Of a stretch of DNA of 64,000 bases, positions 21,090 to 33,301 are shown in pieces (the first letter of the stretch is position 1; every line of letters begins with the position of its first letter). The notes beneath the pieces are model-generated. The model saw nothing but the letters and a program-made list of their open reading frames with translations. It made no database searches and had not been told where the DNA came from. The stretch is from Ignavibacteriota bacterium (lineage in GTDB: Bacteria > Bacteroidota > Ignavibacteria > UBA10030 > SZUA-254). The stretch covers positions 65,566 to 129,565 of the forward strand of contig JACREZ010000032.1 in assembly GCA_016212665.1 (NCBI GenBank), given 5' to 3'. The position numbers and the translations under genes were made by a program.

Positions 21090-24000
21090 ATGTTTGAAAT
21101 ATATTCTTGGCACATGAAACTATATCATCAAACAAAATTTTTGTTCAGCGTTGCATCCTCAATCGTATGCTTCGTACTTGCGTTCTTTATTATCATTCAA
21201 AACTCAAACTCATTCAAAAACGAACAGGAGGAAGAAGGTCACGCGCTTGACGCGTTCAACTGGTGGTATGGTCAACGGGAAAATTCAGATGGGATGATTG
21301 CATCGCAATCGCTATTGAAGGCTCATCGGTACGCATCAAGCAAAATGAAACGAGAGGAAACCAAACGACAACCGAATGGCAAAACAGTTCAATGGGAATC
21401 TATCGGACCGAACAACGTAGGCGGGCGGATTCTTTCGCTCGCAATTGACCCATCAAACACAAACATCCTTTGGGCAGGCTCTGCAAGCGGTGGATTATGG
21501 AAATCAACCACAAAAGGAATTGGCGCTGATGCATGGGAGTACGTCAACACTGGCTTCCCGACAATCTCCATCAGCGCAATCACGATTGACCCGGCAAATC
21601 CGAATGTCATGTACATCGGGACAGGTGAAATCAGTTATTATCATTTTCCGTTGATAGGAACTCCGGGAGCGAGAGCATCATACGGAATGGGAATTTTGAA
21701 ATCAACAGACGCAGGCGCAACATGGAACACAACTCCTCTCACATTTACTTTTTCTCAAATCACGGCAATTCAAAAAATTGTTCTCAACCCGCTCAACACA
21801 AACACCGTGTACGTTGCTACGAGTGAAGGTGTTTACAAAAGCGCCGATGCAGGACAAACATGGAGCGTTTCCAACTCAGTCGTGATGACAATGGATTTGG
21901 TGATGAGTCCTTCCGATACTTCGTTGTTGATTTCTTCTCACGGCAACTTAAACTCGTCCCCCAATCCGGGAATGTACCGAACTACCGATGCGGGTGCAAC
22001 GTGGACGCTCATTACAAATTATTCTCCGACATTCTCTGACTTTGGAAGAACTGCTCTCGCGTTCTCTCCATCAAATCCACAAATAGTGTACGCGGGAATC
22101 AGTAGTGGTTCAACACGTACGCTTCTCGGTTTATATAAATCATCAGATAGTGGAATTTCCTGGACGAAAGTTTCATCTACTAATTATGTCGGCTCGCAGG
22201 GCTGGTACAATAATGTTGTCGCCGTAAACCCACAAGATGAAAACGTTGTGTATTGCAGTGGAATTGATTTGTATGAATCAATCTCCGGCGGAGCGAACCT
22301 CACACGAAAAACAGATTGGACACATGGCTACATGTATTACATCGCGCCGGGTGGAATTGAAGGCGACTCACTCTATGCTCACGCAGACCATCATGCAATT
22401 GCCATTGACCCAACCGACCCGAATATCATTTATGCAGGAACTGATGGTGGCGTATTTCAATCAACGGATGGAGGCGAAACTTTCTCCGGAAGAAACGGCG
22501 GACTCGTCACGACACAGTTTTATCCCGGCTTTGCAAATTCTTTTTTGAATGAAAACATCGCGTTCGGTGGATTGCAGGATAACGGAGTGCTAAAATATCT
22601 CGGAACCACTGCATGGAACAAAGTTGACGGCGGCGATGGCGGTTGGTGCGCAGTTGACCCGCGAAGCGATAACATTGTCTTTGATGAATATGTCTATCTG
22701 ACAATTTCGAAATCAACAAATGGCGGCTTAACATTCCGAAGTATTTCTGCAAGTCTTCCAACCGGTTCGAGTAATGCAAACTTCATCGCGCCGTTTGTTA
22801 TTAGCCCTTCCAATCCTGATATTTTGTATGCAGGTACAAAGGTGGTGTATAAAACAACCAACGGCGGCGACTCATGGTTTGCAACCAATGGCGGAAACTG
22901 GTTTAACGGAACACAAGTCTCGGCAATCGGCGTTTCGTGGTTGAGTTCAGATACATTGATGGCGTCAACAGGAACAGGAAGTTACAACTCATCCCCTTTC
23001 TTTCAGATTTTCGTTTCAACCAACGGCGGACAAAATTGGTCGAACGTAACCGGCTCACTTCCCAATCGCTATCCGACCGATATTCATTTTGATTATTCAA
23101 ACAGCAAAACTGTTTTCCTGACATACTCCGGCTACGGAACTTCTCATGTTTTCAAGACGACAAACTTAGGACAAACGTGGCTCAACCTGACCTCAAACCT
23201 TCCCGATGTTCCGACGCAATCCATTGTCACCGACCCGGAAAACCCGGAAGATATTTTTGTAGGAACTGACCTTGGAATCTATCACTCTTCCGATGGCGGA
23301 GAATTCTGGAACGACTTCAATGCAGGAATGCCCCTCACGATGATAACTGATGTCACCATTTCAAACATCACCGGAATACTTCGGGCATCAACGTTCGGGA
23401 ACGGCTTGTACCAACGCTCGCTTCCGAGAGTTCCTGTTCTCAATCTCAAGTATCCAAAAAACGGTGAGACACTTATTGCCGGAAAAGAATATCAAATCAA
23501 ATGGACGCAAAGATATTGCTCGAATGTTGACATCGAATATTCATCCAACAACGGAACCGATTGGCAAACAATCGCATCAAATCTTCCTGCGAACACGGAC
23601 TCACTCAGTTGGACAGTTCCGTTTGATTCGACTGAGACTGCGAAACTCCGGTTCATTCATCTCAGCGATAGTTCCGTCATTGATTCAACTCAATATTTTT
23701 CGATTATCATCGCACCGCATGTGCTCAGCGATTGGAACTTGGTCTCCCTTCACCTCTCTGTAAATGATGCGTCGAAGTTGAACCTCTTCCCTACCGCCTT
23801 GAGCGAAGCATATCGTTTCGAACAAGGATATAAAATCAGTGACACACTGTACAATGGTTTCGGCTACTGGTTGAAATTTGAAAAACCGCAACATGTATTT
23901 ATTGCAGGCGATTCTATCTTCACAGATACCGTACAGGTTAATGCGCGATGGAATATTATCGGTTCGCTCTCCGTTCCGATTTCTGTCAACCAAATTACCG

Positions 24001-24815
24001 AGAGTGTTTCCGGATTGACAACGTCTGCTATCTTCGGTTATGAAGATGGTTACTACATTACCGACACCATTAAACCGATGCACGGATATTGGGTGAAAGC
24101 ATTACAGGCAGGAGAACTGATTCTTTCTCAATCGAACATAGTATTTCCAAAATCTTTGAGTGTGAAGGAACAATTAGAACAACTCAACTCACTCACATTT
24201 GAAGACGCACGGGGAAAGAAACAAACACTCTATTTCGGAACTACGTCATCAAAATTCAACAGTAATCAATTCGAGATGCCCCCCACTCCTCCCGGCGGCG
24301 CATTCGATGTCCGATACTCCACCAACAAGTTCGTCACATTGTTTGATAAAACACATCCGGCAGAAATTCCCATCCATATTTCTTCAGAACACTATCCAAT
24401 CAAAGTCTCATCAAAAATTATTGACGCTTCCCAAAACATCTCCGTAGTAATTGATGGATCAAAAACTCAATTAACATCAATAACCAATGTACAAATCGTC
24501 AATCGTCAATCGTCAATCTCAATCATCAATACTACTTCTCCCGATCTCCCTAAGCAAGTAGTTTTGAATCAGAACTATCCCAACCCCTTTAATCCATTGA
24601 CAATTATCAATTATCAATTATCAATTCACAATTATGTAACATTAAAGGTGTATGATATTCTTGGAAAAGAAATTGCAACCTTAGTTGATGGAAAACAAGA
24701 AGCAGGTTCTCACTCAATCAAATTCGATGCAAAGAATCTCGCATCCGGAATTTATTTGTACAAACTAACGGTCGGTTCGTTCACCGAAACAAGGCGGATG
24801 ATAGTATTAAAATAA
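21090..24815 (+). CDS. T9SS C-terminal-sorting-domain protein with multiple BNR/Asp-box beta-propeller repeats (paralogue of 4212..7634)
   Basis: N-terminal signal-anchor, many S/TxDxGxTW repeats, a shared middle module (WNLVSLH, GYWLKF, FEMPPTPPGGAFDVRY) and the C-terminal T9SS domain KVYDILGKEIATLVDG...GIYLYKLT. Confidence 0.85.
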   Translation: MFEIYSWHMKLYHQTKFLFSVASSIVCFVLAFFIIIQNSNSFKNEQEEEGHALDAFNWWYGQRENSDGMIASQSLLKAHRYASSKMKREETKRQPNGKTVQWESIGPNNVGGRILSLAIDPSNTNILWAGSASGGLWKSTTKGIGADAWEYVNTGFPTISISAITIDPANPNVMYIGTGEISYYHFPLIGTPGARASYGMGILKSTDAGATWNTTPLTFTFSQITAIQKIVLNPLNTNTVYVATSEGVYKSADAGQTWSVSNSVVMTMDLVMSPSDTSLLISSHGNLNSSPNPGMYRTTDAGATWTLITNYSPTFSDFGRTALAFSPSNPQIVYAGISSGSTRTLLGLYKSSDSGISWTKVSSTNYVGSQGWYNNVVAVNPQDENVVYCSGIDLYESISGGANLTRKTDWTHGYMYYIAPGGIEGDSLYAHADHHAIAIDPTDPNIIYAGTDGGVFQSTDGGETFSGRNGGLVTTQFYPGFANSFLNENIAFGGLQDNGVLKYLGTTAWNKVDGGDGGWCAVDPRSDNIVFDEYVYLTISKSTNGGLTFRSISASLPTGSSNANFIAPFVISPSNPDILYAGTKVVYKTTNGGDSWFATNGGNWFNGTQVSAIGVSWLSSDTLMASTGTGSYNSSPFFQIFVSTNGGQNWSNVTGSLPNRYPTDIHFDYSNSKTVFLTYSGYGTSHVFKTTNLGQTWLNLTSNLPDVPTQSIVTDPENPEDIFVGTDLGIYHSSDGGEFWNDFNAGMPLTMITDVTISNITGILRASTFGNGLYQRSLPRVPVLNLKYPKNGETLIAGKEYQIKWTQRYCSNVDIEYSSNNGTDWQTIASNLPANTDSLSWTVPFDSTETAKLRFIHLSDSSVIDSTQYFSIIIAPHVLSDWNLVSLHLSVNDASKLNLFPTALSEAYRFEQGYKISDTLYNGFGYWLKFEKPQHVFIAGDSIFTDTVQVNARWNIIGSLSVPISVNQITESVSGLTTSAIFGYEDGYYITDTIKPMHGYWVKALQAGELILSQSNIVFPKSLSVKEQLEQLNSLTFEDARGKKQTLYFGTTSSKFNSNQFEMPPTPPGGAFDVRYSTNKFVTLFDKTHPAEIPIHISSEHYPIKVSSKIIDASQNISVVIDGSKTQLTSITNVQIVNRQSSISIINTTSPDLPKQVVLNQNYPNPFNPLTIINYQLSIHNYVTLKVYDILGKEIATLVDGKQEAGSHSIKFDAKNLASGIYLYKLTVGSFTETRRMIVLK

Positions 24816-24995
24816 ATATTCCCCCTTTGAAGAGCCTGTCCCGAATTTATTTCGGGAGGGGCAGGTCTACGACTCGTAGAGGGGATGTCACACCAATGAA
24901 AAACAAAATTATTCCATCTCCGAATCTTGAAAATAGAATGGATATTTGTTATACTGTCACAGAACAACAAACATGTCTTCAAAAAAACATATTAC
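24745..24995. repeat. left copy of a 250-bp direct repeat (3' end of the T9SS sorting-domain ORF plus a nested palindromic element)
   Basis: About 95% identical to 26795..27045 over the core attccccctttgaagagcctgtcccgaattta...ggatatttgttatact. The 5' portion encodes ...GSFTETRRMIVLK*. Confidence 0.8.
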
Positions 24996-25084
24996 GTAAA
25001 TCATACTTGCGTAGTTAGCAGTCATACTAAAAGACATCACAGTTATAACAAAACACTACTTTTGAAACAACATTAATATTCTTT

Positions 25085-26281
25085 TTGTACCTTCGACATT
25101 CAATGGCAGACAAGGCATACATAACCCCAAACGTTTTTAAATGGGCAAGAGAATCGGCAAGAATGTCCGAAGAAACTGCTGCTGCAAAAGTTTCTGTATC
25201 TGTCGACAAACTGAAAGAATGGGAAACAGGAACTAACCAACCTACCATTAGACAAGCACAAACCTTGGCAAAAGCTTACAAAAGACCTTTTGCTTTATTC
25301 TTTTTACCGGAAATTCCAAAAGACTTTCAGCCTCTTCAAGACTTCAGAAAGAGTGGCTCAAAATCATTAAGCACTGCTTCAGTATTTATTATCCGTGAGA
25401 TTCAACAAAAACAATCATGGATAAGTGAACTGAATGAAGAAAATAATGAAAATAAAATTCCATTTGTCGGCAGATTTTCAATTAAAGACAATCCGGTAAA
25501 TGTTGCAAATGATATATTAAATACATTTGGCATTACCCCGGCTAACTACAAAACTGAAAATCCAATTAAAGAATGGATAGACAAAGCAGAGTCGAACGGA
25601 GTATTCATTTCACGTACAAGTTTTATTCACTCACGACTTAAATTAGATTCAGAAGAAATTCAAGGTTTTGCAATTGCAGATCCTTTTGCACCCTTTGTTT
25701 TTATTAACTCTGACGATTGGAATGCACCACAATTATTCACACTTGTACATGAACTTGCACATCTTTGGATAGCTGAAACTGGTATTTCAAACAACATTGA
25801 ACCGGAAATTAAAAATAAAGATAAGTTTCACCCCATTGAGTTGTTTTGCAATGAAGTTGCTGCGCATGCTTTAATACCGGAAAACTTCATGAACAACATA
25901 AATAAAAACACTTTTGATAATTCAATGGAAGTTTTTAAGGTTGCAAAAAAATTAGGGGTTAGTTCATTTGCTTTTTTAGTGAGAGCGTTAAACCTCAATC
26001 TTATTTCAATCAGTGTTTATCAAGCATTGAAGCGAGAAGCGGATGTTGAATACAACGCTTTTCTGAAAAGAGAAGCAGAAAATAAAGCAAAACAAAAGAA
26101 GAAAGAAAAACCCGGTGGTCCAAACTATTTTCTCTTACAACTTAATAGAAATAGTCGGCTATTTACTCAAACAGTTTTAGATGCGTTTCGTGGAGGTTTT
26201 ATTGAACCTACTCAAGCAAGTAATTTACTTAATGTTCGAGTCAATAAATTTCAAAAATTAGAGGCACAGTTATATAAATGA
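25085..26281 (+). CDS. XRE-type HTH fused to ImmA/IrrE-family Zn-metallopeptidase domain (COG2856-like)
   Basis: N-terminal HTH region followed by the HExxH motif VHELAHLW of the DUF955/ImmA peptidase fold. Confidence 0.75.
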   Translation: MYLRHSMADKAYITPNVFKWARESARMSEETAAAKVSVSVDKLKEWETGTNQPTIRQAQTLAKAYKRPFALFFLPEIPKDFQPLQDFRKSGSKSLSTASVFIIREIQQKQSWISELNEENNENKIPFVGRFSIKDNPVNVANDILNTFGITPANYKTENPIKEWIDKAESNGVFISRTSFIHSRLKLDSEEIQGFAIADPFAPFVFINSDDWNAPQLFTLVHELAHLWIAETGISNNIEPEIKNKDKFHPIELFCNEVAAHALIPENFMNNINKNTFDNSMEVFKVAKKLGVSSFAFLVRALNLNLISISVYQALKREADVEYNAFLKREAENKAKQKKKEKPGGPNYFLLQLNRNSRLFTQTVLDAFRGGFIEPTQASNLLNVRVNKFQKLEAQLYK

Positions 26282-26784
26282 GCACAAAGGCAGATTTATA
26301 TTGTTTAGATGCCAATGTACTTATTCAAGCTTGGCTAAAATACTATTCACCCAAATTTTGCTCCGAGTATTGGGATGTTCTTAATCAGTTGGGAATCCAA
26401 AAAAAGATTTTTCTCCCTGCGTTAGTTTATGAAGAAATAACTCGGACTGAAGATGACCTATCGCATTGGTTAAATAATAGTAACATCCCAATTCACAAAA
26501 TTGATGAACCTGTCACCAAATGTTTGCAATCCATATATTCTCAAAATCCTCTACACAAAAATTTAGTTGACAACACAAAGTCAAGGTCGTTAGCTGACCC
26601 TTGGTTGATAGCGCATGCAATGAATGAAAGTGCGACTGTTGTTACAAAAGAAGAAAAGGTTACTGCGCTTAATTCAAACAAAATAAAAATACCGAATGTA
26701 TGTGAAAACATGGCTGTAAGGTGCATTAACGACTTTGAATTTATAGACGAAATGAACATTAAGTTTTCATGTAAATTGCAGTGA
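26278..26784 (+). CDS. DUF4411-family PIN-like protein
   Basis: 168 aa starting MSTKADLYCLDANVLIQAW..., an acidic PIN-like core. It overlaps the upstream HTH-ImmA gene by 4 nt. This pairing is a known two-gene module. Confidence 0.6.
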   Translation: MSTKADLYCLDANVLIQAWLKYYSPKFCSEYWDVLNQLGIQKKIFLPALVYEEITRTEDDLSHWLNNSNIPIHKIDEPVTKCLQSIYSQNPLHKNLVDNTKSRSLADPWLIAHAMNESATVVTKEEKVTALNSNKIKIPNVCENMAVRCINDFEFIDEMNIKFSCKLQ

Positions 26785-26794
26785 TACGATACTC

Positions 26795-27045
26795 AGCAAA
26801 CCGCCAAACTCACATCCGGCTCGTTCACAGAAACAAAACGGATGTTGGTACTAAAATAAAAATTCCCCCTTTGAAGAGCCTGTCCCGAATTTAATCCGGG
26901 AGGGGCAGGTCTACGACTCGTAGAGGGGATGTCCCAACCATGAAAAACAAAATTATTCCATCTCCGAATCTTGAAAATAGAAAGGATATTTGTTATACTC
27001 ACACTCAATAATGAACACATTATTCAAAAACATATCACGTTTATC
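26795..27045. repeat. right copy of the 250-bp direct repeat, including a degenerate remnant of a sorting-domain 3' end (...GSFTETKRMLVLK*)
   Basis: See 24745..24995. Confidence 0.8.
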
Positions 27046-27115
27046 TTCCTTACTTTGAATAGATATACGGAATGCGTACTTACAGTAGTTATACGCCAGC
27101 ACGTGTCAGTGAGAA

Positions 27116-28300
27116 ATGAAAGCAGCTGTTGACTCCATATTAGATCTCTCGACTTGGGAACTACCAAATCCCAAAAATCCCGAGACGGCATATTTTCCTG
27201 CAAAGGACGGTGTTGGCAGGCAGATGGCACGTTGGATTCTTCCTGATAGTCTATCTCCACTCGACTTGTTCTGTTACATCCGGGCACGCTTCGGTCCGCC
27301 CAATGGTCCAACAATGTTGATCCGACAAAACTCAACCGACAATTTGATTCAATGGCATTACACCCTGCGAACAGGCACAATACCTATCGACATTGTTGGA
27401 TTGACATCACGCATTGAGGTCTCGTTTACTCACGTTCCTGAATTCTCTCGGGCTGATCAGGAGAAACTCGTCGAGAACATCAAGAAAGACATCTCCCATC
27501 GTGCACCAGAAATAAAGGCGGTGCGGCAACAGTTGGAGAAATACTCTCTTTTCATCAATCCATACAAACGTTTGTCTGACATCCTTGATGATTTGCAGAA
27601 CAGGCTGCAGGGTCTGAAACTCGACGAGATTCAATTGCCAAGGACACCTACCACTGCGGTTACAAAGAAAGAAGCGGAAGAATGGCAAGCCGAAGCCAAG
27701 CGTTGTCAAGTGGTATTCCGTGAAGGTGCTTTACTCGGCACCAGCATCAGGATGATTGCTCCCGTTCTTGGTGAGTCTTTCGTCAACCTGCTGATATTCA
27801 GTCTTGCCAAGCCAGAAATCAAGAACGATGAGCGACTATACAAGGATTTGATAAATAAGCAGATAGATATTAGAATCAAAAGTCTACATCTCTATTGCCA
27901 AGGGTTTGCAAAACCAATCGATGCGTCAAGCGACTCATTCAAGGACTTCCACACATTAATGAATCGTAGAAACGATATTCTCCACGGCAACATCGACCCG
28001 CTGAGGTTGAAGTATGACGAGGCGTACTTCTATGGAACAATTCCCCTTTTCACAACGCAAAAGGATTTTGCAACAAGAGGCATCAAGGAGTATCTGAGTG
28101 GTGTTGAGCCAGAGATTGCTCTTGCCGACATTCGCACTGTCACGAGGTTCGTGGAGTTTGTCTTGAATCATCTTTCGCCGGATTACATATCTTCGGTCGA
28201 AATGATAATGAATGATCCAAAGCCCGGATGGAGAGAGGACACCAAGCGAATCGGTATCCTTTTTTCCGGAGTTGCCGAAATGTTATTGATCAAGGAATGA
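27116..28300 (+). CDS. hypothetical protein (island gene)
   Basis: 394-aa ORF with GC higher than its neighbours and no recognisable motif. Confidence 0.5.
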   Translation: MKAAVDSILDLSTWELPNPKNPETAYFPAKDGVGRQMARWILPDSLSPLDLFCYIRARFGPPNGPTMLIRQNSTDNLIQWHYTLRTGTIPIDIVGLTSRIEVSFTHVPEFSRADQEKLVENIKKDISHRAPEIKAVRQQLEKYSLFINPYKRLSDILDDLQNRLQGLKLDEIQLPRTPTTAVTKKEAEEWQAEAKRCQVVFREGALLGTSIRMIAPVLGESFVNLLIFSLAKPEIKNDERLYKDLINKQIDIRIKSLHLYCQGFAKPIDASSDSFKDFHTLMNRRNDILHGNIDPLRLKYDEAYFYGTIPLFTTQKDFATRGIKEYLSGVEPEIALADIRTVTRFVEFVLNHLSPDYISSVEMIMNDPKPGWREDTKRIGILFSGVAEMLLIKE

Positions 28301-28373
28301 AGTGACACGTGCCGGCGTATAACAAGCAAAACACCGAACAAGGAATTAAGAGGAATATTTACTTAGGTGCCAA

Positions 28374-29033
28374 ATGCCAACGATAACTGAGACGGTTGAC
28401 AACCTTGACGAAGCCAAGATTCTCGGGTACTTCGAGGTTATTCGAGGAACTTTCCTGACAAAGATTCTTCAGTTCCTGATGATTCATGGTGAGAAAGACA
28501 GTCATCCAATCATTGCTCGATCCAAGATTCCCAACGATGTCATTGCGCAAGTCAAGCACGAATTTGGCAACGAAAAACTGTTCTTTCAGGCCCTTGAGCT
28601 CGAAAACGAAGAACTCTATCACAATCTGATGGAAGACATTCTCACATCGATACTGGTCGGGTCTTGGATTACTTTCGAACAGATCGCTAAAGACATTCCC
28701 AACCCCAATTATTCACACAATGCCGATGACCAGAGTCTAGACTATAAACGAGGAGATTTCGGATTTTCCAAGACAGAAAAGGATAACCTTGATCTGTTCT
28801 ACTACATTCGAAATTCAATTCAACATCACAACGGTGCTTACTTCGCTTCCAGAGAGGTAAACGCTAAGTACAATGAACAAGTCTTTCAATCCATCGGACA
28901 CATTGGAGAGAAGATGATTATCAGCCTTCAAACAGCATACAAAATTTGTCTCGACCTTGAACGACTTTCGTGTAAGGCTTGGTCAAATTATCAACGGCGC
29001 AAATACATCTCATTACAACCGTCTCCGTTGTAA
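28374..29033 (+). CDS. hypothetical protein (island gene)
   Basis: 219-aa ORF, 73 nt downstream of the previous gene on the same strand. Confidence 0.5.
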   Translation: MPTITETVDNLDEAKILGYFEVIRGTFLTKILQFLMIHGEKDSHPIIARSKIPNDVIAQVKHEFGNEKLFFQALELENEELYHNLMEDILTSILVGSWITFEQIAKDIPNPNYSHNADDQSLDYKRGDFGFSKTEKDNLDLFYYIRNSIQHHNGAYFASREVNAKYNEQVFQSIGHIGEKMIISLQTAYKICLDLERLSCKAWSNYQRRKYISLQPSPL

Positions 29034-29373
29034 CGTAAGTGCCTGACGCTCCAGCCTGCCTGCCGCAGGCATGGCGTCCATTATGAGGTATCGTGTACAT
29101 CTGCCTCTGCCACAAGAATACTCCATGATGCTACAAGTAAAATCAATTTTCATCCTTCCGCTTCTTATTTCTTTCATCCTATTTTCTATTTGTAACATCT
29201 TCATTTTGGTTTCTTCCTTCCTGTTTTTGATTAGTTTCAACACGTTTTCAATTTCTTTCATACTCATTTTTATTTGTTATTACCTATTTCGTATTAGTTA
29301 AATACTAATTTTTGTTTATTGCATACTATTTTCTATTTTTAGCATCCTCTATTCAAATTAATCAAACAACATT

Positions 29374-29727
29374 ATGCTAACTCTCGACCTAAAAGCAATT
29401 TGCAAACTTCGTGGCATTGATAGACCATACTCCTTTTTAGTAAAAGCGGGAATTTCTCCACAATCTGCAACAAAGTTAATAAACAGCAATACCCGCATTT
29501 TCCGCTTAGACCACATCGAAATCATTTGCGACAAACTTAACTGCACTCCCAATGACCTCCTTCGTTGGAAACCGGATAATGGTTCCACCCTCACCGACAA
29601 TCATTCTCTGACAAAATTATTACGGGATGAGAATTCATTCCAATTGCTCGAAACGTTAAAGGCTATACCATTAGAACAGTTAAACCAAATCGCAACACTC
29701 ATTAATCAACAAAAAACAGGCAAGTAA
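29374..29727 (+). CDS. XRE-family helix-turn-helix transcriptional regulator
   Basis: Cro/C1-type HTH: ICKLRGIDRPYSFLVKAGISPQSATKLINSNTRIFRLDHIEIICDKLNCTPNDLL. Confidence 0.65.
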   Translation: MLTLDLKAICKLRGIDRPYSFLVKAGISPQSATKLINSNTRIFRLDHIEIICDKLNCTPNDLLRWKPDNGSTLTDNHSLTKLLRDENSFQLLETLKAIPLEQLNQIATLINQQKTGK

Positions 29728-30032
29728 AAACCAAATCTCCAAATAATCAAAATTGAAATTAGCAAAGATATTCGTTATACTGTTACCGAACGATGAACAT
29801 GTCTGAAACAAATATCTTACGTTAGTCCTTCTTACGTTGCTCGGTCAACGACCTGTCGGGAAATACGCATCCGTATTTCAACAACTTAACGGTGAAGTTC
29901 TCACAATTTTGGAGCTAATCGGACAGAGAAACTCATCTTGAATCATTCTCAATATTCTTCGACCTCAATCATCTCAACGCCGGATAGAAATCTATTTTTC
30001 TACCGGAATTTCTACAATAATTTTACCTCGTA

Positions 30033-31850
30033 ATGTCTCCTTCTTCTTTTCATTCTTTCCATATTCCGGTCATGGGCTTGGCGTATACCGTGGACACGCC
30101 GCTCAAAGTAGCACGCTTCGGAATTAACTCTGTCGTTTCCATTATTGAAGATAACCTGCTGGAGGAGATGCGAAAATTTCATTGCATGCAGGCAAACGAA
30201 CAGTACATCCCCATCGGGAAGTACGAGTTCGATTGCCGTTCCCGCCGCGTGACTGAGTATTTGAATTTGTTAGAAAGAATCCTCCTCAGACAAATGGAAA
30301 AAATTAAGTCTGAACAATTTGAAGACGGGACAGATATTGTAAAGTATTTTGAACTGCTTCCCTCTTCTTCTCCACTACGCTATCTCTTCGACCAAATGAT
30401 GAACTTGGATGCAGGAGAAGAGAAATTGTTACTTCAGGAATCGCTCCGTGAAATCATTACCGCCGGTGCTATTGATGTAAACATTATGACCAAATGCGAC
30501 AGAACAAATTATTCTCAGTCGGGAGATGCATTACCCGTTGAGTATTCGGATGCGATGGCAGCCCTTCGCGGATTTGCAAACAGTCAACTTCGTTCTTCGG
30601 TTGTCTTCTCTGCGGGAATGAATCCACGCCTGTTCACCTACTGTGAAACATTCAAAGATTTTTTCCCGGATGAACATCAAAACCTGAATAAGAAAATCAC
30701 TCTGAAGGTAAGTGATTTCAGGTCAGCATTTATTCAGGGTAAATTTCTGGCAAAAAAAGGATTATGGGTTTCCGAATACAGAATCGAATCGGGTTTGAAT
30801 TGCGGCGGCCATGCATTTGCGACCGATGGTTATCTGCTCGCTCCGATATTGGACGAGTTCAAACATAAAAAAGAAGAATTAACCGCCGAACTGTTGGAGA
30901 TGTGTAACCATTCACTTCTCCAAAAAGAGATGAGAACGTTTTCGCACAAGCCAAATGTGAAAATCTCCGTTCAAGGCGGCATTGGTACAGCAAATGAACA
31001 TAATTTTCTGTTGGAACATTTTCAAGTTGACAGCGCGGGCTGGGGAAGCCCGTTTTTACTTGTGCCGGAAGTAACAAATGTTGATGAAGAAACCCTGCAC
31101 AATCTTGCTTCAGCAAAACAAGAGGATTACTACTTAAGTAACACTTCGCCTCTCGGTGTGCTGTTTAATAATTTTAGAAAGAGTTCTGCCGAACAGGAAA
31201 AAAAGAAAAGAATTGAAAACGGAAATCCCGGAAGCGCATGCTTCAATAAATATTTATCGTTCAATACTGAATTTACTGAAAAGCCCATTTGTGTTGCTTC
31301 ACGGGAATATCAGAATTTGAAAATCAATCAACTTACAGAACAACAACTTCCACCCGATGTTCTTGCAAAGCAAATAGAAAAAGTGACTGAAAAGGAATGT
31401 ATCTGCCAATACCTCGGTACATCTGCATATCTGAAAAACGAAATTCCTCCACCGCATAAAATTCAGGAAGTTACAATTTGCCCCGGACCCAATCTTGCAT
31501 ATTTCTCCAATACATTTTCATTGCGAGAAATGATTGACCACATTTACGGAAGAAAGAATATTCTCAACTCATTGCACCGACCAAATATGTTCATCAACGA
31601 GTTGAAGTTGTATGTTGATTATCTGGAAAAAGAAATTACCGATAGCATCGGTTCCGTGACGGAGAAAAAGAATAAATATTTGAAAACCTTTAAGGACAAT
31701 CTCCTTTCAGGAATTGAATATTATAAAACATTAGCGCAATCCATGATTCGGGAAACGGAACACTACCGTCAACATTTTGATGAAGCGTTAGGTAACCTCG
31801 AACAGTATTTAATGAATCTGGAAGTACCGGAGGCGTTTGTTCTAGAATAA
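30033..31850 (+). CDS. large hypothetical protein (island gene)
   Basis: 605-aa ORF with no recognisable domain. Convergent with the SIR2-like gene. Confidence 0.5.
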   Translation: MSPSSFHSFHIPVMGLAYTVDTPLKVARFGINSVVSIIEDNLLEEMRKFHCMQANEQYIPIGKYEFDCRSRRVTEYLNLLERILLRQMEKIKSEQFEDGTDIVKYFELLPSSSPLRYLFDQMMNLDAGEEKLLLQESLREIITAGAIDVNIMTKCDRTNYSQSGDALPVEYSDAMAALRGFANSQLRSSVVFSAGMNPRLFTYCETFKDFFPDEHQNLNKKITLKVSDFRSAFIQGKFLAKKGLWVSEYRIESGLNCGGHAFATDGYLLAPILDEFKHKKEELTAELLEMCNHSLLQKEMRTFSHKPNVKISVQGGIGTANEHNFLLEHFQVDSAGWGSPFLLVPEVTNVDEETLHNLASAKQEDYYLSNTSPLGVLFNNFRKSSAEQEKKKRIENGNPGSACFNKYLSFNTEFTEKPICVASREYQNLKINQLTEQQLPPDVLAKQIEKVTEKECICQYLGTSAYLKNEIPPPHKIQEVTICPGPNLAYFSNTFSLREMIDHIYGRKNILNSLHRPNMFINELKLYVDYLEKEITDSIGSVTEKKNKYLKTFKDNLLSGIEYYKTLAQSMIRETEHYRQHFDEALGNLEQYLMNLEVPEAFVLE

Positions 31851-32413: not shown

Positions 32414-33301
32414 TTACCACACTTCTACAATATTTGGATTATGATTTTCCCGGACAAACGACGGGGCAATGAGAGTTGAGCGAAGTTGGCGATTGGAACA
32501 ATGGCATGTACTAAAATAATCATCGTCCTTTTTATATGCCTGATGAACAATTGATCCTTCAAAATTAATATACATATGATCACACACGTCGCAATATAAC
32601 CAGTTGATGGAGCCATGCAGTTTGTAAAATCGAACTTTTGCACTGACTGCTCTGTCATGAATTGTCCCTGGCTCCACATCTCGCCATGCAAAACCAAAAT
32701 CAAACTCGTTACTTATTTTTAGAATATTGCTTTGATAATATTCATACAATTTACTTTCAATTCCAATATCATAATTCGTTGTAATTACACCCAAGGAATT
32801 TTCTTGCAGTTGTTTTATTATCCATTGGATAAATTTTCCTGTCACGGATTTATTAGCAGGGAATAGTTTTTCATATCGTTCTTGATAAACCTGAACGATT
32901 AAAAATGATATTGCCTGGTCGAGCAATTGGCGAAATTCTGTCAATTGATATCCAGACAACCGGGATGTGAGCGATTTTTCTTCCGAAAGAGAAAAATCAA
33001 GCATGGAAAGAACTTCTGTAATTAAAGGTAAATTCTTCTCTACGTCGGACATACAAAATATTCCATCGCCGGTATATTCCTTCGATTGGTTGATTGATTC
33101 TTGAAGATATTCTAACCCCGATAACATTTCATTTAAATATCCGGAAAGGATTTCCCTTCGCCGTTGATTTTCAGTTTCTGTGTTGAATTTATTATAAAGA
33201 TTATTCTTTGATAATTCCCGTAAAATTAAAGGGAAGATTTGTGGCGTCGTCATATACCCAAATGGTACCGATGCTCCCGCGCCTAAAAATAATGCTGTCA
33301 T
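32414..33301 (-). CDS. SIR2_2-family (SIR2-like, defence-associated) protein, N-terminal portion upstream of an in-frame TAA
   Basis: The N-terminus MTALFLGAGASVPFG is the characteristic SIR2_2 start motif. The same frame continues past the TAA at 32414-32416 for 77 more codons (32183..32413) that contain VIIGYSLPQEDIGIRSLF, the SIR2_2 C-terminal motif. Confidence 0.7.
   Translation of the reverse strand: MTALFLGAGASVPFGYMTTPQIFPLILRELSKNNLYNKFNTETENQRRREILSGYLNEMLSGLEYLQESINQSKEYTGDGIFCMSDVEKNLPLITEVLSMLDFSLSEEKSLTSRLSGYQLTEFRQLLDQAISFLIVQVYQERYEKLFPANKSVTGKFIQWIIKQLQENSLGVITTNYDIGIESKLYEYYQSNILKISNEFDFGFAWRDVEPGTIHDRAVSAKVRFYKLHGSINWLYCDVCDHMYINFEGSIVHQAYKKDDDYFSTCHCSNRQLRSTLIAPSFVRENHNPNIVEVW

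Follow-up and report, generated by a model that had tools for sequence, protein, structure and literature searches.

How does a two-gene toxin–antitoxin (TA)-like module come to lie between two long direct repeats that each carry the 3′ end of a type IX secretion system (T9SS)-substrate gene? The question is raised by a locus of an Ignavibacteriota bacterium (GenBank assembly GCA_016212665.1), in a stretch of 64,000 nucleotides that we refer to as the window (contig JACREZ010000032.1, positions 65,566 to 129,565 of the forward strand; coordinates below count from its first letter). The original prediction, made from the letters alone, proposed a mobile, defence-like module captured at a repeated element composed of a gene 3′ end and a palindromic repeat. 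Our analysis retains part of this view: the module is apparently highly mobile, and it probably arrived by recombination involving the repeated segment. The repeat itself, however, would not be an element owned by the cassette or an att-like site, but a duplicated stretch of the resident intergenic region. Two observations go beyond what had been predicted: a third copy of the repeat exists that is limited to the promoter part (29753–29839), and the identity between the repeat copies is strongly mosaic.

Layout of the locus and structure of the repeat

On the plus strand, the order of features in the window is: T9SS gene – A – B – C – (HTH-M78 gene, DUF4411 gene) – A′ – B′ – C′ – (394-aa open reading frame (ORF), 219-aa ORF, HTH_26 gene) – C″ – leader – 605-aa gene. 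Segment A is the 3′ end of the T9SS-substrate gene, B a terminator-like palindrome, and C a predicted promoter with its leader. The T9SS gene (21090–24815) is the resident left anchor of the locus and encodes Sortilin/BNR repeats and a Por_Secre_tail domain (Pfam). Two orthologs were found, a partial one on a metagenome contig (L003) and one with 77% identity on a contig (L004) of a metagenome-assembled genome (MAG); an exact record look-up of the protein, with two alternative start codons, returned no entry.

The two direct repeats of about 250 nt, predicted with a core identity of about 95%, are present at slightly shifted coordinates. In an ungapped repeat scan, 24761–24986 matches 26805–27030 over 226 nt (86% identity, spacing 2044 nt), and a gapped alignment places the homology at ~24765–25012 and ~26809–27057. 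The identity is distributed over three segments: A (24765–24815; 40/51, 78%), a core (24816–24955; 133/140, 95%, with 59/60 in its last 60 nt), and a tail past the −10 box (24956–25016; 61%). The change points are sharp (A versus core, p = 0.0013; tail versus core, p = 4e-9), and exact runs common to both copies measure 32–43 nt.

In the left copy, segment A consists of the final 17 T9SS codons and the stop codon (KLTVGSFTETRRMIVLK; 24765–24815, from alignment and translation). Its counterpart A′ (KLTSGSFTETKRMLVLK; 26805–26859) is a displaced remnant of a T9SS 3′ end, and translation returns the two peptide ends as originally stated, GSFTETRRMIVLK and GSFTETKRMLVLK, each followed by a stop. 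A′ differs from A by five synonymous and three non-synonymous codons. Because the frame and the stop are intact and the K and L states agree with orthologs L003 and L004, A′ resembles the 3′ end of a functional allele and not a freely decayed copy.

Segment B (24816–24889) is a terminator-like palindromic stem-loop of ~80 nt with a predicted RNA folding energy of −34 kcal/mol (z = −3.7), in which two hairpins, TCCCGAA/TTCGGGA and TCTACGA/TCGTAGA, are enclosed by a CCCC/GGGG stem. The right copy, B′ (26860–26933), was located by motif and alignment, and the predicted palindrome core TCTACGACTCGTAGA occurs in both. A 32-nt motif bearing the palindrome occurs twice in the 64 kb and a 29-nt promoter motif three times, where 100 shuffles give an expectation of 0. 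An nhmmer profile search of the window and all fetched loci gave no B beyond these two, save in a fragment from the Logan assembly (L001) that is the window's own. Because B occurs only twice, a genome-wide repeat of the repetitive extragenic palindrome or miniature inverted-repeat transposable element type is unlikely within the 64 kb. On L003 (615–760, compared with window 24800–24960), the promoter element directly abuts the T9SS stop (ATGAAATAAGAGAGAATATTTGTTATAGT) and B is absent; B may either have been inserted in the lineage of the window or have been lost by a deletion that joined two similar motifs, TTAAAATAAA and TTGAAAATAGA.

Segment C is a predicted sigma-70-like promoter (TTGAAA-17-TATACT) followed by a conserved ~55-nt leader, and occurs three times in the window (at 24927, 26971 and 29753; chance expectation 0), with no fourth copy in an nhmmer profile search of the window. 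A distance of 148 nt separates C-left (24922–25012; −35 TTGAAA at 24927–24932, −10 TATACT at 24950–24955) from the HTH-M78 gene downstream, and C-right (26966–27057; −35 at 26971–26976, −10 at 26994–26999) lies upstream of the 394-aa ORF. The copies begin alike at the −35 hexamer, and their 3′ ends differ by up to 36 nt (native positions 29820–29856). We also considered C as a small RNA, a riboswitch or an attC site; these were ruled out, as the leader folds no better than shuffled sequences, both as RNA and as DNA. An Rfam scan of the whole window returned a single tRNA and no RNA family for B or C.

The repeat as resident intergenic DNA

The closest sequenced relative, MAG GCA_016191715.1, indicates where C belongs. 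On its contig L023, an ortholog of the 605-aa protein (90% identical) is preceded by C and the leader, which can be aligned with the window over 263 nt (L023:3710–3972 with C″ and the 5′ leader at 29753–30032). No inserted genes stand before this ortholog, and its upstream neighbour is different and divergent. Because the same C and leader precede the L023 ortholog without inserts, C″ is the promoter region that natively belongs to the 605-aa gene. The extra copies of that promoter are C-left and C-right, and the repeat as a whole is the complete interval that ancestrally separated the T9SS gene from the 605-aa gene, present twice with its three parts A, B and C.

Other relatives suggest that this interval is an insertion hot spot. 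On L003, the T9SS ortholog is followed by C and a gene for a 297-aa membrane protein, and then by another C with a gene for a HipA_2 kinase behind it. On L015 and L016, prfC is followed by C, the gene pair and then the 605-aa ortholog, so that the pair is placed inside the 5′ leader of the 605-aa gene; there is a single C and nothing is duplicated. The module proteins of L015/L016 are 91% identical to those of the window, and the DNA is 87% identical over window positions 24923–26795, where C-left and the pair form one homologous unit. The original prediction had held that unrelated content between the same repeats would argue against a discrete insertion, and something close to this is seen for the promoter: in the window, copies stand before both the 394-aa ORF and the gene for the 605-aa protein, and on L003 before the membrane protein and kinase genes. 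Exact-pattern scans found the C motif in no genome contig and in one metagenome contig (L003), and neither the C nor the B motif in viral contigs.

The suggested empty site, a T9SS gene followed by a single repeat copy in a relative, was not found in true form. On L004, which belongs to the same MAG as L023, synteny differs: only 17 nt separate the T9SS ortholog from the next gene, which is convergent and encodes an lptB-like ABC-ATPase (from the ORF translation). L004 and L023 are different contigs, with different neighbours, of the sole sequenced relative that has both the T9SS and the 605-aa genes.

The HTH-M78 and DUF4411 gene pair

Two genes occupy the space between the repeats as predicted, at 25103–26281 and 26278–26784 on the plus strand, and they overlap by ATGA. 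The first encodes a 392-aa protein in which HTH_3 (9e-07, residues 13–65) is fused to Peptidase_M78 (ImmA/IrrE; 3.5e-11, residues 179–294), with the HELAHLW motif inside the latter. It matches 17 PADLOC families, of which 13 are RmrA models (best 5.3e-20, residues 5–326), and PHROG 2439 (4e-59), and is annotated here as an RmrA-like antitoxin or regulator. The second encodes a 168-aa PIN-like protein and putative nuclease toxin, which matches DUF4411 over its full length (3e-40) and PIN at 6e-4, under the Pfam cut-off. Four acidic residues of the DUF4411 protein (D11, E53, D107 and D152) are invariant in a five-sequence alignment. No PADLOC family matched it at E ≤ 0.01, and hence no RmrT model.

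DUF4411.1 genes are reported to sit downstream of HTH-DUF955 fusions, in putative three-component TA-like systems (Matelska et al. 2017, PMC5499597), and RosmerTA is a phage-defence TA system with a Zn-peptidase antitoxin (Millman et al. 2022, bioRxiv 10.1101/2022.05.11.491447). The suggestion that the pair is a known TA- or defence-type module is borne out by these descriptions: by its domain make-up, it is a COG2856-HTH + DUF4411 (RosmerTA-like) module of the type-II-like TA or abortive-infection (Abi) kind. From family membership, the putative DUF4411 nuclease would be the toxin, and the HTH–Zn-peptidase protein would repress and neutralise it, and release it upon a phage or stress signal.

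Mobility and other contexts of the module

The 392-aa protein belongs to a set of more than 120 clusters at 90% identity that are 77–91% identical to it; about 110 of the 120 clusters listed are exactly 392 aa long and the others 390–419 aa. The labels of their source MAGs are Ignavibacteriae, Bacteroidota and Clostridia, and one identical variant is found on 92 contigs in many neighbourhoods. Judging by this spread, the pair is highly mobile. In plasmid and phage collections, homologs of the module reach only ≤ 40% identity.

In biogas-fermenter metagenomes, the same module (protein ~79% identical) occurs as an integron-type cassette with an attC-like site. These cassettes share sharp boundaries (G|TT), with the 5′ end reading ...CCGTT|GGCGATCAAGC and a ~130-nt imperfect attC-like hairpin at the 3′ end, where R″ (ATCGCCAAC) can pair with the start of the cassette and is complementary to R′ (GTTGGCGAT); equivalent palindromes stand at every neighbouring gene boundary of the contigs. 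From the attC-like sites, contigs L005–L014 appear to be integron-type cassette arrays. On these contigs, from biogas-fermenter and other metagenomes, the HTH-M78/DUF4411 cassette adjoins components of a diversity-generating retroelement (bAvd, RVT_1) as well as genes for GmrSD type IV restriction.

On L017 and L026–L028, the pair stands alone among housekeeping genes. On L017 (5703–9682 of a 273-kb contig), the module (82% identical) directly follows a hipBA-like TA system (HTH_19, Couple_hipA, HipA_C), and a gene for a ctpB-like S41 peptidase comes 42 nt after it; here, too, a small TA islet lies amid housekeeping genes. Long flanking direct repeats were found in none of 13 other contexts of the module (repeat scan of L005–L014; inspection of the flanks in L015, L017 and L028).

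The window copy may retain traces of a cassette. Its start, GTTAGCAGTCATACTAAAAG, resembles the cassette starts of L005 and L028, GTTAGCAG... is weakly cassette-start-like, and an R″-like CGCCAAAC of weak similarity follows the stop codon. At the DNA level, blastn detects no cassette-start homology of the window to L005, and the resemblance is no more than suggestive.

Proposed origin of the layout

We propose that the layout arose by recombinational insertion at the hot spot, through a single homologous exchange together with a single illegitimate join, the latter at a microhomology, in a displacement-type event; we give this a probability of roughly 55%. Donor DNA of the form T9SS 3′ part – A – B – C – module would have met a locus T9SS′ – A′ – B′ – C′ – block 2 – C″ – 605-aa gene, and the two DNAs would have been united by the homologous exchange and by an illegitimate join at the 7–8-nt microhomology AAACTCAC. 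The older 3′ end, stem-loop and promoter would thereby have been displaced downstream, and the central 140 nt homogenised, afterwards or simultaneously, by gene conversion or crossover. At least two such rounds would yield the three promoter copies, with each inserted block retaining a resident promoter copy in front and the 605-aa gene retaining its own. A dedicated recombinase or att site would not be involved.

Homology between the window and L016 in the 3′ flank of the module ends at 26812, and the homology of A′ to T9SS 3′ ends begins at or before 26805. Because the two homologies overlap in 7–8 nt (AAACTCAC, 26805–26812, plus strand), the junction looks like an illegitimate join. Past this point the resemblance of L016 is to the native leader, not to the end of a T9SS gene; a candidate T9SS remnant after the pair in L016 scored no better than shuffled sequences. 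In addition, an orphan in-frame T9SS 3′ end with its stop, A′, is retained downstream of the new block, as the displacement model expects.

Several points weigh against this proposal. First, there is no true empty site, because synteny differs in L004 and L023. Second, no donor or recipient genome with a single-copy T9SS–ABC–pair or T9SS′–A′B′C′–394-aa arrangement was found, so the order and polarity of the events are a reconstruction. Third, the microhomology AAACTCAC is based on one comparator per side (L016 and L003). Fourth, A′ is short (51 nt), with A, A′ and L003 about equidistant, and an old duplication in situ followed by divergence appears inseparable from the import of a foreign allele for A′. 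Fifth, the near-identity of the core would require an extra gene-conversion step, or would equally fit a single crossover with a circle. Finally, the toxin and antitoxin roles are putative, drawn from family membership alone.

The alternative that survives best, although we consider it unlikely, is Campbell-type integration: a 2,044-bp circle with the pair and one A′–core–C tail, having entered through one RecA-dependent crossover inside the near-identical 140-nt core, would leave a cassette that can be excised reversibly and without a recombinase. The layout corresponds exactly to the product of a single crossover, the identity steps from 78% to 95% to 61% at the core edges as if the exchange took place inside the core, and the copies share exact runs of 32–43 nt. 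A Logan assembly gives the cassette as a separate 1,983-nt contig ending in both repeats, as would be expected of a circle and of an integrated copy alike. However, the circle must carry a T9SS remnant, so that a duplication must already have existed; no junction of a circle was observed, the 140-nt core is a short substrate, and the 13 other module contexts lack long flanking direct repeats.

A bolder and rather improbable extension is that C (~90 nt) is not just a promoter copied along passively but a portable module for recombination and expression, by which promoter-led arrays are built from accessory genes (TA, HEPN-like and HipA-like) in a clade of the Ignavibacteria, downstream of a housekeeping gene and partly from attC-less integron cassettes. 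If true, C would represent a cassette-capture system that is independent of a recombinase or uses one of an unknown kind.

We regard it as still less probable that the layout is an assembly artefact, in which repeat copies from two co-existing strains were chained by the assembler. The window does come from a MAG, and the repeats interrupt an independent assembly of run SRR12113407 made with k=31. However, contig L001 of the Logan assembly joins the tail of C-left to the pair, and the DUF4411 stop to A′–B′ with the variants of the right copy, and contig L002 starts in the right copy and runs into the 394-aa gene. The copy-specific differences are also at most 43 nt apart, and ordinary reads can therefore phase the copies; the link across the 43-nt exact run is the one less secure point.

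Site-specific machinery was sought in the window itself. Among the scanned ORFs of at least 120 aa across the 64 kb, none carries an integrase, transposase or recombinase Pfam domain, and the integron hallmarks IntI and attI are accordingly represented by no integrase domain. No attC-like inverted repeats were found in 24.7–30.1 kb, and neither 26785–26860 (z = −1.3) nor C (z = −0.4) shows attC-like folding better than shuffles. The hallmarks of a transposon or insertion sequence are lacking as well: there is no transposase, the flanking repeats are 250 nt long, direct and diverged, and no short target-site duplication accompanies the module in the window. Because the repeat is duplicated host intergenic DNA with a native promoter, variable C ends and no attC fold, and because no recombinase was found in the 64 kb, it is not a dedicated att-like site. 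The least probable explanation, that a recombinase encoded elsewhere in the genome, integron-like or other, uses B or C as its att-like site and that the locus is a non-canonical cassette array, can appeal to the biogas cassettes (G|TT boundaries, R″/R′ and the ~130-nt attC-like hairpin), to the cassette-like start and R″-like motif of the window and to the C copies that separate unrelated gene blocks, but it is opposed by the missing attC-like fold and palindromes, by the lack of an integrase or transposase domain in the 64 kb, by C serving a core gene as its native promoter where a relative is free of cassettes, by C 3′ ends that vary by up to 36 nt, and by a cassette-start similarity that blastn does not detect.

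Second inserted block and neighbouring genes

A second inserted block (27058–29745, plus strand) lies between C-right and C″ and contains the 394-aa ORF (27116–28300), the 219-aa ORF (28374–29033) and the HTH_26 gene (29374–29727). The 394-aa ORF has an Rx4H motif and weak, sub-threshold HEPN matches. It is exactly bracketed by a 21-nt inverted repeat (27088–27108 and 28303–28323; GTTATACGCCAGCACGTGTCA / TGACACGTGCCGGCGTATAAC, 95% complementary), which could mark the ends of a cassette, form a long-range stem in the mRNA or be what is left of a transposon. The repeat scan also revealed, in the interval that separates the 219-aa ORF from the HTH_26 gene, a T-rich repeat with a period of ~21 nt and ~7 copies (29162–29349), overlapping an 84-aa ORF on the minus strand (29013–29267); these units could resemble iterons or operators, or they could encode a heptad repeat.

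The right anchor of the locus is the conserved hypothetical 605-aa gene (30033–31850, plus strand). Its protein has no family in Pfam or NCBIfam, but belongs to a large conserved family without assigned function that has thousands of homologs in Ignavibacteria/Bacteroidota MAGs (E ≤ 1e-20 for all 8000 scored candidates; 58–100% identity among the 120 matches listed). Beyond it, a mostly unannotated block of ~14 kb (32–46 kb) extends to groEL and contains PLD, Exo_endo_phos, CPBP/Rce1-like and Amidase_2 domains and a SIR2-like ORF (32414–33301, minus strand; PADLOC SIR2 1.5e-13). This block may be a larger accessory or defence island.

Significance and comparison with known systems

Taken together, the locus appears to be a known mobile TA/defence module placed at a hot spot by ordinary homologous and illegitimate recombination, with a locus duplication in place of an att site, and would involve no new mechanism or family. 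The most interesting residue is that one promoter element recurs before unrelated accessory genes in this clade. The locus offers a natural example of a small defence/TA module in different genetic vehicles, as an attC-like integron cassette elsewhere and here, without attC, between copies of host DNA. It also suggests that hot spots can grow serially by displacement, with each new block inheriting a resident promoter copy, which is useful for annotating defence islets in uncultured FCB-group bacteria. Long direct repeats that flank a cassette are, as a caution, not necessarily att sites.

The gene pair has the same architecture and order as COG2856-HTH/DUF4411.1 modules and RosmerTA, with an HTH_3 + M78 fusion bearing HExxH followed by a translationally coupled DUF4411 gene. 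RmrA profiles match the first gene (5e-20), whereas the DUF4411 partner matches no RmrT model; the pair may work like RosmerTA and is termed RosmerTA-like here. A further difference from the described modules is that the operon in the window is predicted to be driven by a promoter copy borrowed from a neighbouring gene.

With the TA and defence cassettes of integrons, the module shares proteins of 79% identity, which occur there as discrete attC-like cassettes, and possibly a start and an R″ remnant. In contrast to these cassettes, the window copy has no attC, integrase or attC array, and its flanks are duplicated host intergenic DNA. As in integrative elements at tRNA or protein genes (attL/attR), the direct repeats include a gene 3′ end and the target gene is intact, but the window has no integrase, the repeats are 250 nt long and mosaic (61–98% by segment) instead of a short identical core, and the element measures only 2 kb.

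A parallel in layout is offered by arrays that grow by displacement through homology-facilitated illegitimate recombination, a route proposed for Rhs and contact-dependent inhibition (CDI) C-termini and for the effector–immunity arrays of V. cholerae's type VI secretion system (T6SS) (Kirchberger et al. 2017, PMC5361080). The shared features are a conserved upstream gene as homologous anchor, an orphan 3′ fragment (A′) and a serial array, together with an incoming block that would have displaced the older 3′ end and the genes after it; a join at a microhomology may be another. In the Rhs and T6SS arrays the displaced unit and the cargo differ from those found here, where the mechanism is inferred, the cargo is TA/Abi-like and unrelated to the anchor gene, and the displaced unit would comprise a gene 3′ end, a terminator-like element and the promoter of the next gene.

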